Shown here one piece after another: positions 19,654 to 30,442 of a stretch of DNA of 64,000 bases. The notes under the pieces were generated by a model. It saw only the letters and a list, made by a program, of their open reading frames with translations. It was not told where the DNA came from and ran no database searches. This DNA is from a virus (lineage: Duplodnaviria; Caudoviricetes), in the IMG/VR virus record IMGVR_UViG_3300028888_002023, positions 1 through 64,000 of that record. One strand, written 5' to 3'. Within the stretch, counting starts at the first letter, position 1; every line of letters begins with the position of its first letter. Position numbers and translations under genes: made by a program.

Positions 19654-20613
19654 TTATAAAGCCAATACCACTTTCTTATCACATATAGCACAACCATCAT
19701 GGTCTGAATAACATTGATAAACATTAGAATGACCACATGGTAGTAGCTCTATTTCTTTTAAGGATTTGTCGCAATCTAATTCTTCTTTAAAATCAGAACT
19801 TCTATGAAAAACAACATTTCTTAAACTTTCATCATTAAAGTTTTTATGTAACTCTTCAGCTTTTAAATCATTACTAAATAAATTCTGATATGACTCTAAA
19901 CCTTCCCTTTCCCTATACTTAAGGAGAAATTGCATAAACTCCATTCGTGTTGGGAAGAAATCATAACCCATTTCATTATTAATTTCAGCTCTGGTCATAT
20001 TGCACTTATCGTCTGGTTTTACAGGTGTTTTAAAGAACACGTGAGTGTCGTATTTTTGTTCAAAAGCATGGATATCTATATCATCTCTAAGATATGCTTG
20101 AATAAAACTACCAGTTAATATAGAAGTAGTGTTAATTCTAACTTCTGGATATTTCTTGTGAATTAAAGCCATATGTTTTTCCCAATTCTTTAGCATATTA
20201 AAAGTATGAAATCTACCTATAATATCATATGAAGTTAAAATCCATAACTTATTTTTCTGTTCTATTTTATTAATTGCTTCATAAAGGTCTTTCTGGTCTC
20301 CAATAGTTAAAGTTGCGTTCAACCAAAGTTCGTTTATATCACCTTCAATTAACATACAATTTGAGAGGTCTATGAGGGTCATGAATGCCCTTTTAACCTC
20401 TGGATTATGTAATTGTCCTTGAAAGAACTCTCCACCAATAAAACCTAGCGTAGACACCTCACCTTTCTTTAAGTTTAACAACTCAATAATAGTGGTTGTC
20501 AAAGCCTGCAATTTCATTTTATCTGAAGTTTTAGTTATATTATGACCTAATGTGCAATAATCACAAAAGTTATTACATTCCTGCCATAATTCATATTGAA
20601 GTATTTTACTCAT
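19654..20613 (-). CDS. radical SAM protein (paralogue 1)
   Basis: QYELWQECNNFCDYC (CxxxCxxC), GGEFF, TSYD..GRF, C-terminal CGH-x12-CxxCD. Confidence 0.85.
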   Translation of the reverse strand: MSKILQYELWQECNNFCDYCTLGHNITKTSDKMKLQALTTTIIELLNLKKGEVSTLGFIGGEFFQGQLHNPEVKRAFMTLIDLSNCMLIEGDINELWLNATLTIGDQKDLYEAINKIEQKNKLWILTSYDIIGRFHTFNMLKNWEKHMALIHKKYPEVRINTTSILTGSFIQAYLRDDIDIHAFEQKYDTHVFFKTPVKPDDKCNMTRAEINNEMGYDFFPTRMEFMQFLLKYREREGLESYQNLFSNDLKAEELHKNFNDESLRNVVFHRSSDFKEELDCDKSLKEIELLPCGHSNVYQCYSDHDGCAICDKKVVLAL

Positions 20614-21658
20614 TGTCTTCCATAAATAATTTAATTCTATCTAATAATTGATGCACTAATTTTATAGCATCTTCTGCCATTTCTGGGAATGTCATATATT
20701 GAGAACCTCTTAACCTTATATAGAAGTTTTCACTTTTATTATAATCACCAGATTCTAACCTAACTTCTTTATCTTTACATTTTTCATAAAATGTCTGGCT
20801 GTACGCCAACCGAGGTGGACAATCTATTTGTAAAGAGAATATGTGAGGCACACTGTCTGGAAGTAATTTAATATAAGGTTTATTAATATACTCAATAAAT
20901 TCTTCCTTCATTATTTGAGAAAAATAAGATAATTTAACTTGACGATTAAGTATTAATTTTAAAGCACCTATGTAAATCCATAACCAATTCCAGTATTTTT
21001 CACCAAAGGTTTCCTCTGTTTTAGACCACATTAAGCCCATGTCCCATCTTCTAATTAAGGCGTGAGCTGTAGATAAAACATAGTCAAACATAGTATAATC
21101 TCTAGGAACAAGGAAGAGACCATGTACATCATCAATGACAGTGGTCACTTCCAGTCCCTTTGACTTAAGGAAGGTAAAAAGTTTTTCATAAAATCTCTGT
21201 GGAGTTATTTCTCCAGTAGTGATTTGTGTACCTATAATATAGACAAATGCTTTCTTATAAGTCTTTTTCATTAATGCTTCTTTAACTTGACTTAAATTTA
21301 AAGAATCTATACCGTTATAATAATGAAGTATTACATGGTCTTTTTCTTCTCTATCAATCCGTTTTATAGCAGCTTTAACGGCATCATGTTCTACTACAGA
21401 TGTAATAAGTAATGTATCTTCATCTACGTGTTTATCAAATAAGTAATTTATGAAATCAGTAGCGGACTTTTCGACATAAAGTTGATGGTTCTTAAGAGTA
21501 TGTCCTAAAGGGACCATACTTCTTAACATATCCTCGTAACAAGCCCAAGTCTTTTTATCTTCTCTTCTTTCATCATAAGGACATTTTTTATTTACAGCTT
21601 CAAGCTCTTCTCCAGCGAGCCGTTCATAATTTATCCACCATTCAGTTAATTTATTCAA
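20606..21658 (-). CDS. degenerate class-V PLP-fold (NifS/IscS-like) protein
   Basis: SATDFIN, ITSVVEHDAV, TTGEI, DDVHG are collinear with NifS motifs, but STAHAL replaces SxHK and no catalytic-Cys loop is seen. Confidence 0.55.
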   Translation of the reverse strand: MNKLTEWWINYERLAGEELEAVNKKCPYDERREDKKTWACYEDMLRSMVPLGHTLKNHQLYVEKSATDFINYLFDKHVDEDTLLITSVVEHDAVKAAIKRIDREEKDHVILHYYNGIDSLNLSQVKEALMKKTYKKAFVYIIGTQITTGEITPQRFYEKLFTFLKSKGLEVTTVIDDVHGLFLVPRDYTMFDYVLSTAHALIRRWDMGLMWSKTEETFGEKYWNWLWIYIGALKLILNRQVKLSYFSQIMKEEFIEYINKPYIKLLPDSVPHIFSLQIDCPPRLAYSQTFYEKCKDKEVRLESGDYNKSENFYIRLRGSQYMTFPEMAEDAIKLVHQLLDRIKLFMEDNE

Positions 21659-21663
21659 CTATA

Positions 21664-28398: not shown

Positions 28399-29150
28399 TA
28401 TTCTTTAACCCCTTCATTTGCAGTTTCTTCTAAAATACTAAAGAAGTCTTCCATGAAACCTAAACCTGCTTGACATTTACTTAACAATGTTGTCATAAAA
28501 ACATAAGCATCATCAATATATACTAATTCACTTGTAGAAAATTCTGGTGATTTAGCAAAAATACCAGATAATGTTGCTAAATCAGATGAAAGAATCATAT
28601 TTGCATAAAGTACTGGTAATTTAATATGCTCATCAGATGGAGTATACATAAATTTAGTATATGATTTAATTAAAGATAAGAAATAAATACTTAATTGCTT
28701 AATAAATGCTTTAATATTAGCCCCTAAAGCTAACTTTATATCTAATAACTCTTCTACACTATTAAAATAAACATCTGAAGAATTAAAGAATTCATCATTA
28801 AGATTATTATAAGATTTAACTAAATTATACATATTTAGTTGCATTAAAGGGTCTGCTAAATTAGGATTATCAAACCCATATTTAAGTGCTTCAATCTTTT
28901 GTTCAGTAGAAGCATTCTTTAAATCAAACATTACAATAACATTTGATGTATCTTCGTTAACATCTTCAACACCATCTTCATCTGGTATTTCACAATTCTG
29001 GCTAACTCTGGTTACAAGGTACTTATCTTCATAACATTTTTCCATGATTTTAATTAAATCTTCAGCTTCAGGTGTAACCCTGATAATAACATTTTTACCT
29101 TCACAAGCTGTATCAAACTTGTAACCTTTTCCATTGTACTCTTTTAACAT
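28398..29150 (-). CDS. hypothetical protein (acidic, helical C-terminal half)
   Basis: 250-aa ORF translationally coupled (1-nt overlap) to the poly-Ser gene. Confidence 0.6.
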   Translation of the reverse strand: MLKEYNGKGYKFDTACEGKNVIIRVTPEAEDLIKIMEKCYEDKYLVTRVSQNCEIPDEDGVEDVNEDTSNVIVMFDLKNASTEQKIEALKYGFDNPNLADPLMQLNMYNLVKSYNNLNDEFFNSSDVYFNSVEELLDIKLALGANIKAFIKQLSIYFLSLIKSYTKFMYTPSDEHIKLPVLYANMILSSDLATLSGIFAKSPEFSTSELVYIDDAYVFMTTLLSKCQAGLGFMEDFFSILEETANEGVKE

Positions 29151-29161
29151 GGTGCTCTCCT

Positions 29162-30442
29162 TTACAATTCCAATTTAACTACACACTCAACTAACTTTTC
29201 ACCCTCTTCAAGGTTTTCTTCAAGTGCTCTTCCAACCAAATTATAGCATGGGTTTTTAGAATTGTCAACTTTTCCCACTCCAGCTTCATCAGATAAAACA
29301 ATGTAATCAAATTTCTTTACAGGACCTTTTACCCTTACAGGAATTCTTCCTGTTAAGGCTATTAATGATGGATGTTCCATATTATTATCACCATTTAATA
29401 TGTATGCTGGATTTGTTGATATAACAGCATTTACAGCATCTTTAGCCTTAGTTATTTCTTTTTCTCCACCAAACTGAACTAATGTACCTGCTGGTAATTC
29501 TTCATCAGCATCATAATATTCGGCAATATCGGCAGATAGTGCTCTGTATGCAGTACCCATTATTACTTTATCAAAAGTACACACATTTTTAAAGTTGGCT
29601 GTATTATTTGCTGTTAAAGTACCATTTACAGTTGTATTACCTGCTACAGTTACTGCTCCAGAAAGAGTGGTTGCCCCAGTGACACCTAATGTAGAAGCAC
29701 AAGTTACAGCACCATTTGCTTGTAAAGCATTAGTTGTAACTTTACCAGAAAAAGATGATAAACCTGCTGTAACTTTTAAGGCGTATGCGTTGCTTGCAGT
29801 ATTATTAAAAGTTACCATTTTAGCAAATGTTTTTTCAGACTGAATTGTTTCAGCATTACCTGTCAAGTGAACAACACCAGCGTTGATTTCATTTTGTACA
29901 GCAGTAATTCTACCTAAAAGGTCCTGATACATAGCTTGTACATCTGTTTCGTTTGCTTTACCACCAGCACCAGAAAGTTCCCAACCTTCTGTACCTGTTT
30001 CAGTTTGTTTTAAATAAAGATAACCTGTATCAAGGTCAGTATACATATCACCACGGTTTCCAGACTTATACCCATTAGGATTACCATGACCTTGGCTGTA
30101 TACTTCATTCATAGACATCATACGTCTCCAATATGTTGCCTGTTTAGAATAAATATCACCTGTAGAAGTATCTAAATATAAGGAACCAACGGCTGAATCA
30201 ATTAAATCATCATTCAAAGAAGGGTCTCCAACCCCATTCAATATATACTTTAAATCTTTTGCTCTGTTAGGTAGTGTGTATGATGCTAAGTTACCATTTT
30301 CATCAAAGAATTTTACGGTAATATCACGTGCCTCTGGGTTATAAAAAATATCAAACCAGTTTTGAGCTAATTCATTATAGTTTTGTGCCAACTGGGATAA
30401 TGTTGTCGCAATTTTCTGTATATCTTGAGTTTCTACAGCCAT
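29162..30442 (-). CDS. tail fibre/spike with C-terminal autoproteolytic intramolecular chaperone (peptidase G2-like)
   Basis: beta-repeat shaft (TLGVTGATTLSGAVTVAGNTTVNGTLT); ADIAEYY...AVISTNPAY...ALTGRIPVRV...VGRALE. Confidence 0.7.
   Translation of the reverse strand: MAVETQDIQKIATTLSQLAQNYNELAQNWFDIFYNPEARDITVKFFDENGNLASYTLPNRAKDLKYILNGVGDPSLNDDLIDSAVGSLYLDTSTGDIYSKQATYWRRMMSMNEVYSQGHGNPNGYKSGNRGDMYTDLDTGYLYLKQTETGTEGWELSGAGGKANETDVQAMYQDLLGRITAVQNEINAGVVHLTGNAETIQSEKTFAKMVTFNNTASNAYALKVTAGLSSFSGKVTTNALQANGAVTCASTLGVTGATTLSGAVTVAGNTTVNGTLTANNTANFKNVCTFDKVIMGTAYRALSADIAEYYDADEELPAGTLVQFGGEKEITKAKDAVNAVISTNPAYILNGDNNMEHPSLIALTGRIPVRVKGPVKKFDYIVLSDEAGVGKVDNSKNPCYNLVGRALEENLEEGEKLVECVVKLEL

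Follow-up and report, generated by a model that had tools for sequence, protein, structure and literature searches.

The six radical SAM (rSAM) genes described here, from an uncultured gut/rumen phage, lie on the minus strand of a 64,000-nt window (the whole stretch of DNA that was analysed). They are part of a conserved, previously undescribed gene set that also encodes a helper protein and a protein ending in a run of serine and cysteine residues. There is strong support for the rSAM enzymes and the Cys/Ser-tailed protein being a conserved functional unit. With slightly better than even confidence, the cassette can be read as a new, self-contained and phage-borne rSAM system for protein-tail maturation, RiPP-like in its logic. 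A search of the literature found no paper that describes this rSAM/Ser-tail system.

The comparison set consists of 22 distinct related loci, all from uncultured phages. The rSAM family is present in all 22, while the helper (~160–250 aa) and the Ser/Cys-tailed family are each found in 21. The initial annotation held that its proposal would suffer if such arrays mostly lacked a Cys/Ser-tailed neighbour. Instead, a tailed ORF occurs within 10 kb in 17 of 18 IMG/VR loci, which had been retrieved through an rSAM alone, and in six of nine MAG loci, where two of the three apparent exceptions have one elsewhere in the bin. Retrieval in the reverse direction, via tailed-family proteins, leads to loci bearing the same cassette. 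In the minimal cassette (L001), the only enzymes are rSAMs A, B and C, which accompany the helper, the tailed protein and its paralogue.

The organization of the window cassette is given in Table 1. Its 12 ORFs (19654..30442) are all on the minus strand, with overlaps of 1–23 nt and gaps no wider than 27 nt (at 22185/22213), and the tight packing and main feature positions of the initial annotation are confirmed.

Table 1. Features of the rSAM cassette and its surroundings (positions in the window).
Feature	Position	Strand	Remarks
TTACATTTTA promoter-like motif	30484..30493	-	upstream of fibre gene
Tail-fibre-like protein, 426 aa	29162..30442	-	PHROG tail-fibre matches
Extended sigma-70-type promoter, predicted	29240..29268	-	~90 nt before helper gene
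Helper ('partner') protein, 250 aa	28398..29150	-	core component
Ser/Cys-tailed protein, 283 aa	27547..28398	-	folded N-domain, S/C run and cap
Tail-less paralogue of tailed protein, 240 aa	26820..27542	-	family alignment
rSAM enzyme, subfamily A	25929..26804	-	Pfam Radical_SAM, clade support
rSAM enzyme, subfamily D copy 2	24998..25936	-	motifs, orthologues, tree
rSAM enzyme, subfamily D copy 1	24115..25008	-	Pfam Fer4_12, tree
Second extended sigma-70-type promoter, predicted	24098..24126	-	before subfamily-B gene
rSAM enzyme, subfamily B	23168..24091	-	orthologues, clade support
rSAM enzyme, subfamily C	22213..23190	-	motifs, tree
173-aa protein, non-core	21664..22185	-	homologues in L010 and L011 only
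Class-V-aminotransferase/NifS-like protein, 350 aa, accessory	20606..21658	-	weak NCBIfam matches, language-model look-alikes
rSAM enzyme, subfamily C, deep-branching second copy	19654..20613	-	motifs, tree
GT2 glycosyltransferase	16814..17878	-	downstream, same strand; Pfam Glycos_transf_2

The six window enzymes (~290–325 aa) are true paralogues, 25–41% identical to each other. A CxxxCxxC motif near the N-terminus is present without exception in the six and across the 66 aligned members of the family. In the SAM-binding GGE motif the GG is invariant and the E nearly so, with GGE complete in all six, and the ribose-motif strand S-x-D-x3-R, which aligns with the SYDE strand of YydG, is also invariant. 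The shared motifs first reported therefore stand as regards the W, CxxxCxxC, GGE and S-x-D-x3-R, but the leading Q is found in only five of the six, the subfamily-A enzyme having E-F. Two enzymes exceed Pfam gathering scores, subfamily A for PF04055 Radical_SAM (31.9 bits vs 29.5) and D copy 1 for PF13353 Fer4_12 (26.7 bits vs 22), and the other four score 15–22 bits with PF04055/PF13353. Rather than having arisen by local duplication, as was initially thought, the six genes represent four orthologous subfamilies of ancient origin (A, B, C and D; SH-aLRT 99–100) that are common to distant phages. The usual gene order across loci is A-D-B-C, and this recurrent order of four orthologous clades implies distinct steps. 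Subfamily B is the most conserved (orthologues 44–78% identical, clade support 100), while the orthologues of A elsewhere are 35–72% identical (clade support 100). Enzymes of A, B and C end in C-x-H-x12-14-C-x-x-C, seen as C-x-H...C-x-x-C in A, CGHS...C...C-x-x-CD in B and CGH...C-x-x-CD in C; the second copy of C branches deeply and has a C-terminal Cys/His motif. The two D copies have no C-terminal Cys motif, and copy 2 groups with its own orthologue in L011.

The tailed protein ends in CSSC, S16 and AFIVYMDI, that is, a 20-residue S/C run (27574–27633) followed by an eight-residue cap (27550–27573). Since its Ser codons are mixed (AGT/AGC/TCT/TCA), this tail is not a simple microsatellite, and all six Ser codon types are in use across the tails of the family. 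Family tails have 18–32 residues, consist of Ser and Cys only, with 0–8 Cys, and lead into a cap whose conserved pattern is Φ-F-I-(A/G/V)-Y-M-x-(I/L). A run restricted to Ser and Cys, varied Ser codons and a fixed cap together suggest that the tail is under selection at the protein level. The Cys pair is dispensable, as tails made of Ser alone exist; of the earlier proposal, the pairing of enzymes with a Cys/Ser protein is upheld. The AF2 model has moderate confidence over residues 10–160 and disorder over the final ~90, and on this prediction the tail is accessible as well as disordered. No known fold was matched by this predicted structure. The tailed proteins measure 196–283 aa, apart from one of 640 aa in L026; this long form and P0202 (301 aa) are among the family members that carry extra domains.

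The adjacent tail-less protein was originally described as a paralogue of the tailed one. The pairwise likeness is weak (24% identity, E=0.025), but the relationship is borne out through homologues, by which it is a clear member of the family alignment. Its homologues are found at the equivalent position in L001, L003, L010, L011, L014, L021 and the L036 bin. The helper gives a good AF2 model (pLDDT 86, pTM 0.80) that has no match to PDB or viral folds (Z<=5), and the protein belongs to no Pfam or PHROG family; with no known fold, its role can only be guessed at. The low-scoring structural match of this model to anSME (Z 4.9) is not meaningful.

The closest solved relative of the enzymes by profile is the RiPP peptide epimerase YydG (E=8e-10 with 6 sequences, 3e-9 with 66), although the likeness is modest (40 bits) and covers the N-terminal 170 positions, including the cluster motif, GGE and SYD strand. 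None of the curated subfamilies tried (viperin, NrdG, PapB, YydG) can claim these enzymes, all models scoring far below cut-off. At E<=0.1 no window enzyme matches the YydG family model (TIGR04078), and four of the 66 family members do so (best E=9.7e-5). Viperin (NF038283) scores 16–20 bits vs 180, matching only residues ~4–65 or to ~120; viperin-type models match 45 of the 66 members, all by the motif in the N-terminal 60 residues, and viperin structures match the family profile at E ~4e-6. NrdG models (TIGR02491/02495/02826) reach 12–20 bits vs cut-offs of 126–152, and scores for viperin, NrdG and MoaA are all ~20 bits vs 126–284. This HMM check thus places the enzymes in no nucleotide or small-molecule subfamily; such a placement would have told against the initial proposal. 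Weak N-terminal matches were also seen to PapB (12 of 66), StsB and CcpM, and no SPASM family, with its 7-Cys motif, was matched by the window rSAMs at E<=0.1 in Pfam.

Several known systems share features with the cassette. The gene for YydG adjoins that for its ribosomal substrate, and the enzyme targets hydrophobic residues, a kind also present in the cassette cap. The Bacillus subtilis YydG/YydF epipeptide system (PDB 8ai1–8ai6) has CxxxCxxC, GGE and the SYD strand in common with the cassette rSAMs, but uses one enzyme on a short peptide, whereas the cassette has four specialised rSAM subfamilies, a folded protein of ~200–280 aa with a Ser/Cys run and no protease or ABC exporter, and is phage-encoded. 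SPASM thioether maturases (of sactipeptides and of ranthipeptides, e.g. PapB, SCIFF/CteB) and 'Cys-rich peptide' maturases likewise combine an rSAM with a Cys-rich precursor; unlike those of the PapB, AlbA and CteB type, the cassette enzymes have a short C-x-H...C-x-x-C or none, and the tail Cys are dispensable. In anSME/AtsB, an rSAM oxidises Ser or Cys interchangeably to formylglycine in a folded protein. Such tolerance would explain the Ser/Cys substitutions in cassette tails, although anSMEs carry a SPASM domain and have no sequence kinship with the cassette rSAMs beyond the superfamily. Mycobacteriophage virions are reportedly O-glycosylated at Ser/Thr-rich C-termini (work ascribed to Freeman et al., 2023), again a hydroxyl-rich C-terminus on a phage structural-region protein, and glycosyltransferases are nearby in some cassette loci; that process is not known to involve an rSAM, whereas in the cassette rSAMs are invariant and transferases optional. 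The multi-rSAM arrays mentioned in the initial annotation do exist, passages of PMC2853527 giving 11–12 clustered rSAM genes for Campylobacter phages CP220/CPt10; the neighbours there are amidinotransferases, and these passages do not mention Ser/Cys-tailed proteins. With two window rSAMs as queries, tblastn found nothing in 50,697 phage records.

The constant position of the tailed protein beside the helper and four rSAM families indicates that the Ser/Cys tail is probably chemically rebuilt by the cassette rSAMs. We infer, as follows, that the tail is the substrate, what the helper and paralogue do, which chemistry takes place and any part played by the tail fibre. The tailed protein would fold by its N-terminal domain, leaving the disordered C-terminus (~20 Ser/Cys plus AFIVYMDI) exposed, and the paralogue and 250-aa helper may hold or present it. 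The A, B, C (two copies) and D (two copies) enzymes would then work on the tail, each converting SAM to a 5'-deoxyadenosyl radical that abstracts hydrogen from residues of the Ser/Cys run, of the cap or of both. YydG removes hydrogen from C-alpha and epimerises residues; as it is the closest characterised enzyme, L-to-D epimerisation is our first guess for one or more of the steps, with Ser/Cys oxidation to formylglycine or cross-linking as alternatives. In some phages, hydroxyl-directed glycosyl- or carbamoyl-transferases or a MiaB-like methylthiotransferase domain may add extra steps.

It is unlikely that the poly-Ser run instead carries O-linked groups (added by glycosylation, carbamoylation or possibly sulfation), with rSAMs tailoring these groups or their precursors, and not the peptide, to form a glycan-like coat on a fibre-associated protein. 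The run admits only hydroxyl- or thiol-bearing residues, carbamoyltransferase is found in 4 loci, a GT2 gene lies downstream in the window, and in L006/L007 sugar-nucleotide genes (epimerase/dehydratase, DegT aminotransferase, FdtA), two GT2 and a carbamoyltransferase are interleaved with rSAMs. However, L001 and most loci have no transferase inside the cassette, the invariant part is the four rSAM subfamilies, and the window GT2 has its own promoter and is set apart by a 547-aa fibre-like gene. A true RiPP, with run and cap modified, cut from a large folded 'leader' and freed at lysis as an antimicrobial or signal, seems quite improbable. The putative ribosomal precursor does adjoin its candidate maturases, an arrangement kept across homologous clusters, the product of the closest characterised enzyme is an antimicrobial epipeptide, and the hydrophobic cap, coming after a polar stretch, is reminiscent of a core or follower peptide. 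Against this, no RRE, leader protease or exporter/transporter was found among the cassette proteins scanned, protease and transporter being absent from all cassettes examined, and the candidate precursor is a folded protein rather than a short leader plus core: its N-domain is conserved, folded and 170–250 aa long, with a tail-less paralogue, and the extra domains of the L026 and P0202 forms suit a protein product better than a leader.

There is similarly little likelihood that the rSAMs, with the aminotransferase-like and QueC-like proteins, are devoted to the synthesis of a modified nucleotide, DNA base or cofactor, and that the tailed proteins are structural or scaffold neighbours with no relation to them. 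The viperin-like N-terminal similarity (45 of 66 members), a QueC-like gene adjoining the L004 cassette, the siting of several cassettes among DNA/RNA-repair genes, and the use of rSAM and PLP enzymes in phage thymidine hypermodification (described in passages of PMC8989533) favour such a role. The viperin, NrdG and MoaA scores given above do not, QueC occurs in one lineage only, and in phages that differ greatly the tailed protein and the helper recur just as constantly as the enzymes do, which would not be expected of unrelated neighbours.

The TTACATTTTA motif has 7 copies in the window (1.4 expected; none of 100 shuffles reached 7), every one directly upstream of a same-strand gene, including the fibre gene (30442), as claimed for the operon start, and a weakly portal-like gene (49474). 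The promoter predicted before the first cassette gene (29268–29240) is TTGACA-N14-TGnTATAAT, a 12/12 consensus match with TG, and perfect extended sigma-70-type promoters are also predicted before 24091 and before the GT2 gene (17957–17929). There are 10 window matches to this class at <=1 mismatch, against 0.19 expected, and the promoter before the subfamily-B gene is kept at the equivalent position in L010, the closest relative. With promoters at 29268–29240 and before 24091, the cassette may be transcribed apart from the tail-fibre gene and need not be expressed late, in contrast to what was initially envisaged, and in other phages the cassette sits among DNA-metabolism genes, not fibres.

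The remaining genes are more variable. The NifS-like protein, present in 11 of 22 loci, matches NCBIfam NifS models at E ~0.02 (12–14 bits vs cut-offs of 377–588), and has no Pfam match at E<=0.1 (PF00266 included) and no PDB profile match; its language-model look-alikes are, at a high score, Aminotran_5, and a class-V-aminotransferase/NifS-like identity is weakly supported. T197, H199 and A200 are shared without exception by 11 homologues, the window stretch being T-A-H-A, compared by eye with S-G-H-K, the Schiff-base lysine motif of NifS/IscS. The 173-aa protein, initially called dUTPase-fold, has no family match and no PDB sequence match, its sole hit being Herpes dUTPase (Herpes_ORF11) at E=0.2, and among the 22 loci its homologues are confined to L010 and L011. 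The GT2 (Glycos_transf_2, E=1.9e-17) may be an accessory of the cassette, the link being uncertain. The sugar and carbamoyl enzymes of some loci fit hydroxyl decoration as well as backbone chemistry. The fibre matches PHROG tail-fibre families (E 1e-9 to 4e-5), and its C-terminal 147 aa, initially described as an intramolecular chaperone, weakly resemble the autoproteolytic-chaperone domain PF11962 Peptidase_G2 IMC over residues 23–71 (E=0.0035, 17.2 bits vs 25). In 6 of the 22 loci a homologous fibre C-terminal domain lies on the upstream side of the cassette, a tail-fibre-like gene being a frequent, non-obligatory neighbour.

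The 12 minus-strand ORFs between 19654 and 30442 are packed as tightly as the initial annotation described, with short overlaps or gaps of at most 27 nt. The virus record behind the window is a single contig of 76,175 bp, and the window spans its initial 64 kb; the GC content is about 31%, and no tRNA genes were found in the window. Further genes on the same strand follow downstream of the 12: one for a fibre-like protein of 547 aa, one for a GT2 glycosyltransferase and those for the giant repeat proteins. Two of the giant proteins share 55% identity and are built of repeats of about 20 residues, 'FNQP(I/V)(T/N)IPN(S/T)V', which presumably resemble leucine-rich repeats of the BspA type, making them candidate host-adhesion proteins. 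The tail-less paralogue encoded by the fourth gene is recorded in identical form (P0201) on a contig of 125,030 bases, so that the 76,175-base record may represent an incomplete genome.

Positions of genes and promoter-like sites in the window and of selected genes in related loci
Feature	Position	Strand	Length	Remarks
Fibre-like protein	29162-30442	minus	426 aa	gene 1
Helper	28398-29150	minus	250 aa	gene 2; no family
Tailed protein	27547-28398	minus	283 aa	gene 3
Tail-less paralogue	26820-27542	minus	240 aa	gene 4
rSAM, clade A	25929	minus		gene 5
rSAM, clade D	24998	minus		gene 6
rSAM, clade D	24115	minus		gene 7
rSAM, clade B	23168	minus		gene 8
rSAM, clade C	22213	minus		gene 9
Unknown protein	21664-22185	minus	173 aa	gene 10
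Aminotransferase-like protein	20606-21658	minus	350 aa	gene 11
rSAM, clade C	19654	minus		gene 12
Giant repeat protein	2245-6699	minus	1484 aa
Giant repeat protein	6733-11202	minus	1489 aa
Giant protein	11953-16245	minus		probably same repeat type
Mtd_N fibre-like protein	35964-38519	minus	851 aa
Protein beside Mtd_N fibre	38558-39262	minus	234 aa
Methyltransferase-like protein	48167-49444	plus	425 aa
Sigma-70-type site	2210-2238	minus
Sigma-70-type site	17929-17957	minus		perfect copy (17957-17929), before GT2 gene
Sigma-70-type site	24098-24126	minus		perfect copy (24126-24098), before rSAM B
Sigma-70-type site	29240-29268	minus		perfect copy (29268-29240), within fibre 3' end, ~90 nt before helper ATG
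Sigma-70-type site	35128-35156	minus
Sigma-70-type site	41679-41707	plus
Sigma-70-type site	41791-41819	plus
Sigma-70-type site	42234-42262	plus
Sigma-70-type site	61103-61131	plus
Sigma-70-type site	61196-61224	plus
Fused rSAM form	L006:12621-14687
Fused rSAM form	L008:7091-9091
Fused rSAM form	L008:10001-11524
Enlarged tailed protein	L026:6436-8358		640 aa	extra parts
Tail-less form (P0202)	L042:10001-10906		301 aa

The tailed protein, the helper and four clades of radical SAM (rSAM) enzymes form an invariant trio. Related loci from uncultured phages or MAG contigs were retrieved with the tailed family (L001, L003, L042), with rSAM representatives (L004, L006, L008) or with rSAM subfamily B alone (18 IMG/VR loci and 9 loci in genome bins), and the same gene set was found by each route. 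The initial annotation had named as counter-evidence that homologous arrays mostly lack a Cys/Ser-tailed neighbour; instead, one or two tailed ORFs lie within 10 kb in 17 of the 18 IMG/VR loci, the exception ending 600 bases upstream of the match, and a tailed ORF lies in the flank of 6 of the 9 MAG loci. Among the other three, L036 has a tailed protein a few kb away in its bin, together with the helper and the tail-less paralogue; the bin of L034 carries all of these on other small contigs; and L030 is a short contig. When the ORFs of 22 distinct loci are clustered, the rSAM family is present in all 22, and the helper and the tailed family in 21 each. Less constant are the aminotransferase-like protein, with 11 loci, the C-terminal domain of the fibre, with 6, and a carbamoyltransferase, with 4. 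The smallest cassette (L001) consists of tailed protein, tail-less paralogue, helper and three rSAMs. The bins of L028-L036 are labelled Succinivibrionaceae, Muribaculaceae, Bacilli, Melainabacteria, Erysipelotrichaceae and Bacteroides, and three of the contigs measure 245-283 kb; because these labels are mutually inconsistent, the cassette contigs are probably phage DNA mis-binned into bacterial genomes.

In the window, the tailed protein ends in CSSC-S16-AFIVYMDI, and all four of its word-level homologues likewise end in a Ser/Cys run followed by AFIVYMDI or a similar cap. In 33 members of the family, typical runs have 18-32 residues, all of them Ser or Cys and 0-8 of them Cys; two copies, found in L004 and L020, are Cys-free, which rules out the Cys residues as essential targets. 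The eight-residue cap, Φ-F-I-(A/G/V)-Y-(M)-x-(I/L), usually supplies the last residues of the protein. All six serine codons are in use across the tails of the family, and slippage of a microsatellite is ruled out by the mixed codons and the conserved cap. All this marks the tail as conserved and under selection. Tails are present on both paralogues in several phages. P0202 lacks one, and its C-terminus is extended by about 120 residues rich in Tyr, Thr, Asn and Ser; neither it nor the enlarged member in L026 has a Pfam match. An AlphaFold2 model made with 13 homologues gives an α/β N-terminal domain (residues ~10-160, moderate confidence) and a disordered C-terminal third. A fold search with this model (pLDDT 54) returned only background, the best being helical subdomains of ABC-ATPases (Z≤5.8), and the ESM Atlas gave no usable match. 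Pfam, PHROG and NCBIfam scans of the tailed protein, paralogue and helper yielded no significant match; phrog_232 'baseplate wedge', hit by 3 of 13 tailed-family members at E ~0.01, is taken as noise.

The six rSAMs of the window share 25-41% pairwise identity and an invariant W-x2-C-x3-C-x2-C, GGE and S-x-D-x3-R, and four of them (all except the 24115 and 24998 enzymes) also have a C-terminal C-G-H...C-x-x-C-D. Two pass the Pfam cut-off, and three match phrog_1802 'radical SAM domain-containing protein'. Their NCBIfam matches (viperin, NrdG, PapB, HxsC, MoaA) reach 12-20 bits against cut-offs of 126-490, and among 66 family rSAMs the viperin model matches 45, always at the N-terminal motif, PapB 12, HxsC 7 and YydG 4. 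With scores so far under every NCBIfam cut-off, the enzymes fall in no curated subfamily, including those (QueE, viperin, NrdG) that had been named as possible counter-evidence. The top PDB relative by profile is YydG, a peptide epimerase of Bacillus, which ranks first among all PDB sequences both for the six-rSAM profile (E=8e-10, residues 4-178) and for the 66-sequence profile (3e-9, viperins next at ~4e-6). At E≤1e-3 the family takes in 886 representative clusters, and at 1e-30 still 274; the members inspected in ten sampled clusters have no informative names. All occurrences found are in uncultured phages or in phage-like contigs within MAGs, part of them with rumen or animal sample labels. 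Neither the 10.8-kb region (megablast) nor two of the rSAMs (tblastn) matched any of 50,697 phage records, even at E≤1. The initial annotation's mention of multi-rSAM arrays in CP220-type phages is correct: PMC2853527 gives 11-12 rSAM genes for the Campylobacter phages CP220 and CPt10. Their genomes, too, carry many rSAM genes, but tblastn with two window rSAMs detected no similarity.

BLAST and a maximum-likelihood tree of the 66 sequences (quick IQ-TREE search) resolve four clades, usually in the gene order A-D-B-C. SH-aLRT support is 100 for A and B, 99 for C, and 99 for D with 15 of its 16 members, the remaining one being an outlier on a long branch. In the window, A and B are represented by one enzyme each, C and D by two each. 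The view that all six arose by local duplication is not borne out: each D copy groups with its own orthologue in L011, so this duplication is older than these phages, and the tree rules out recent duplications within the window phage. That one member is kept per clade would argue for four distinct steps or sites.

Because the trio is invariant and the chemically uniform tail is conserved at the protein level, the tail is best explained, from sequence comparison, as the substrate of the rSAMs. The logic of the system is RiPP-like, and a rival reading has the tail released as a peptide; however, the 'precursor' is itself folded and has a paralogue, and neither a protease nor an exporter nor a recognition domain was found for the cassette, which is therefore not filed as a RiPP family member. 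Kinship with YydG makes epimerisation the favoured chemistry on the tail, although formylglycine-type oxidation would also fit, given that Ser and Cys are interchangeable. Obligatory thioether links are harder to reconcile with tails that lack Cys. Another rival is nucleotide or cofactor chemistry; in its favour are a QueC-like gene adjoining the cassette in L004 and the viperin-like N-terminal matches, and against it stand the constancy of tailed protein and helper beside the enzymes and the low scores of the viperin, NrdG and MoaA models. A third makes decoration of hydroxyls the main event. In L006/L007, sugar-nucleotide genes, two GT2 enzymes and a carbamoyltransferase are interleaved with the rSAMs; such transferases are optional, and suggest that hydroxyls are decorated later.

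With the tail as substrate, a fuller scheme can be put forward tentatively, with well short of even confidence: the four rSAM families would act on a folded protein of the phage and turn its all-Ser/Cys tract into a polymeric modification of a new kind (an alternating D/L-serine segment, poly-formylglycine or a tract derived from it, or a cross-linked ladder), to which some phages would add glycosylation, carbamoylation or methylthiolation. This would be a virus-encoded hypermodification pathway without a cellular counterpart, which phages of anaerobic bacteria of gut and rumen would probably use at the tail-fibre region. If the tail is the substrate, the pathway would be the first known in which several rSAM enzymes act on a folded protein of the phage that encodes them, and the pure Ser/Cys run with its fixed cap is a substrate type undescribed for any rSAM system. 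The earlier remark that the CSSC-(S)16 arrangement is undescribed agrees with the full-text literature, in which no description was found of a poly-Ser or Ser-rich protein with rSAMs in phages or RiPPs. So large a family, with all its occurrences found in uncultured phages and phage-like MAG contigs, points to unexplored chemistry in anaerobic viromes. Enzymology would gain four new rSAM subfamilies together with a peptide substrate that is already defined and simple to synthesise, and the system could show by what means host-contact proteins of phages are hardened, disguised or given new functions.

The helper gives a good model (pLDDT 86, pTM 0.80), but comparison with PDB and BFVD gave only background (best Z 5.0), and its best viral Foldseek match is an uncharacterised protein at E=0.055. 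By hhalign it is related neither to the tailed family nor to the rSAM family, and the idea of a degenerate rSAM was dropped on the latter ground. The NifS fold assigned earlier to the 350-aa protein, which has 11 homologues, survives as a weak class-V aminotransferase likeness (NCBIfam E ~0.02; Atlas features 0.95), but a PDB profile search with this NifS-like family gave no match. T197, H199 and A200 are invariant in the family; they belong to a T-A-H-A stretch in the window protein that may sit at the position of the NifS S-G-H-K, in which case the PLP lysine could be missing. The 173-aa protein is not a core member of the cassette, and the dUTPase fold put forward for it earlier stays tentative, with Herpes_ORF11 at E=0.2 as the sole match and no PDB sequence hit. 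The fused rSAM forms join a MiaB-like methylthiotransferase (UPF0004 + Radical_SAM) to a family rSAM (L006, L008) or a weakly P-loop-NTPase-like N-terminal domain to a C-type rSAM (L008).

The phage seems to use two promoter types. The TTACATTTTA motif is real, with 7 copies in the window vs 1.4 expected; as first noticed, it is shared by the fibre and the portal-like gene, and it also precedes a divergent tail-collar fibre, the Mtd_N fibre and others. The stronger class is an extended sigma-70 consensus, TTGACA-N14-TGnTATAAT, with 10 matches at ≤1 mismatch vs 0.19 expected; these sites (TTGACAA...TGnTATAAT) lie ahead of same-strand genes, the structural region included. The one before rSAM B is retained in L010, the closest relative, and in L008 such promoters precede rSAM A and the gene before the helper. 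With a predicted promoter before the helper and others further on, the cassette could be transcribed on its own, and late expression, as first proposed, would be only one possible timing. The link between cassette and fibre is partial. The fibre gene is indeed packed with the cassette on the same strand, but the proposed fusion to a fibre transcript is weakened by the cassette's own predicted promoters and by the fibre C-terminal domain (weakly Peptidase_G2-like), homologues of which precede the cassette in only 6 of 22 loci. Cassette neighbours in L001, L004 and L042 are DnaJ, ligases and helicases.

Elsewhere in the window, the Mtd_N fibre carries its major tropism determinant domain at the N-terminus, and the C-terminus of the adjacent 234-aa protein weakly matches the HTH region of DNA invertases/integrases. 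The TTACATTTTA motif precedes the two genes, which from these matches may be a tropism-switching pair. The 425-aa protein matches phrog_9968 'methyltransferase' (E=8e-119) and is encoded directly upstream of the portal-like gene.
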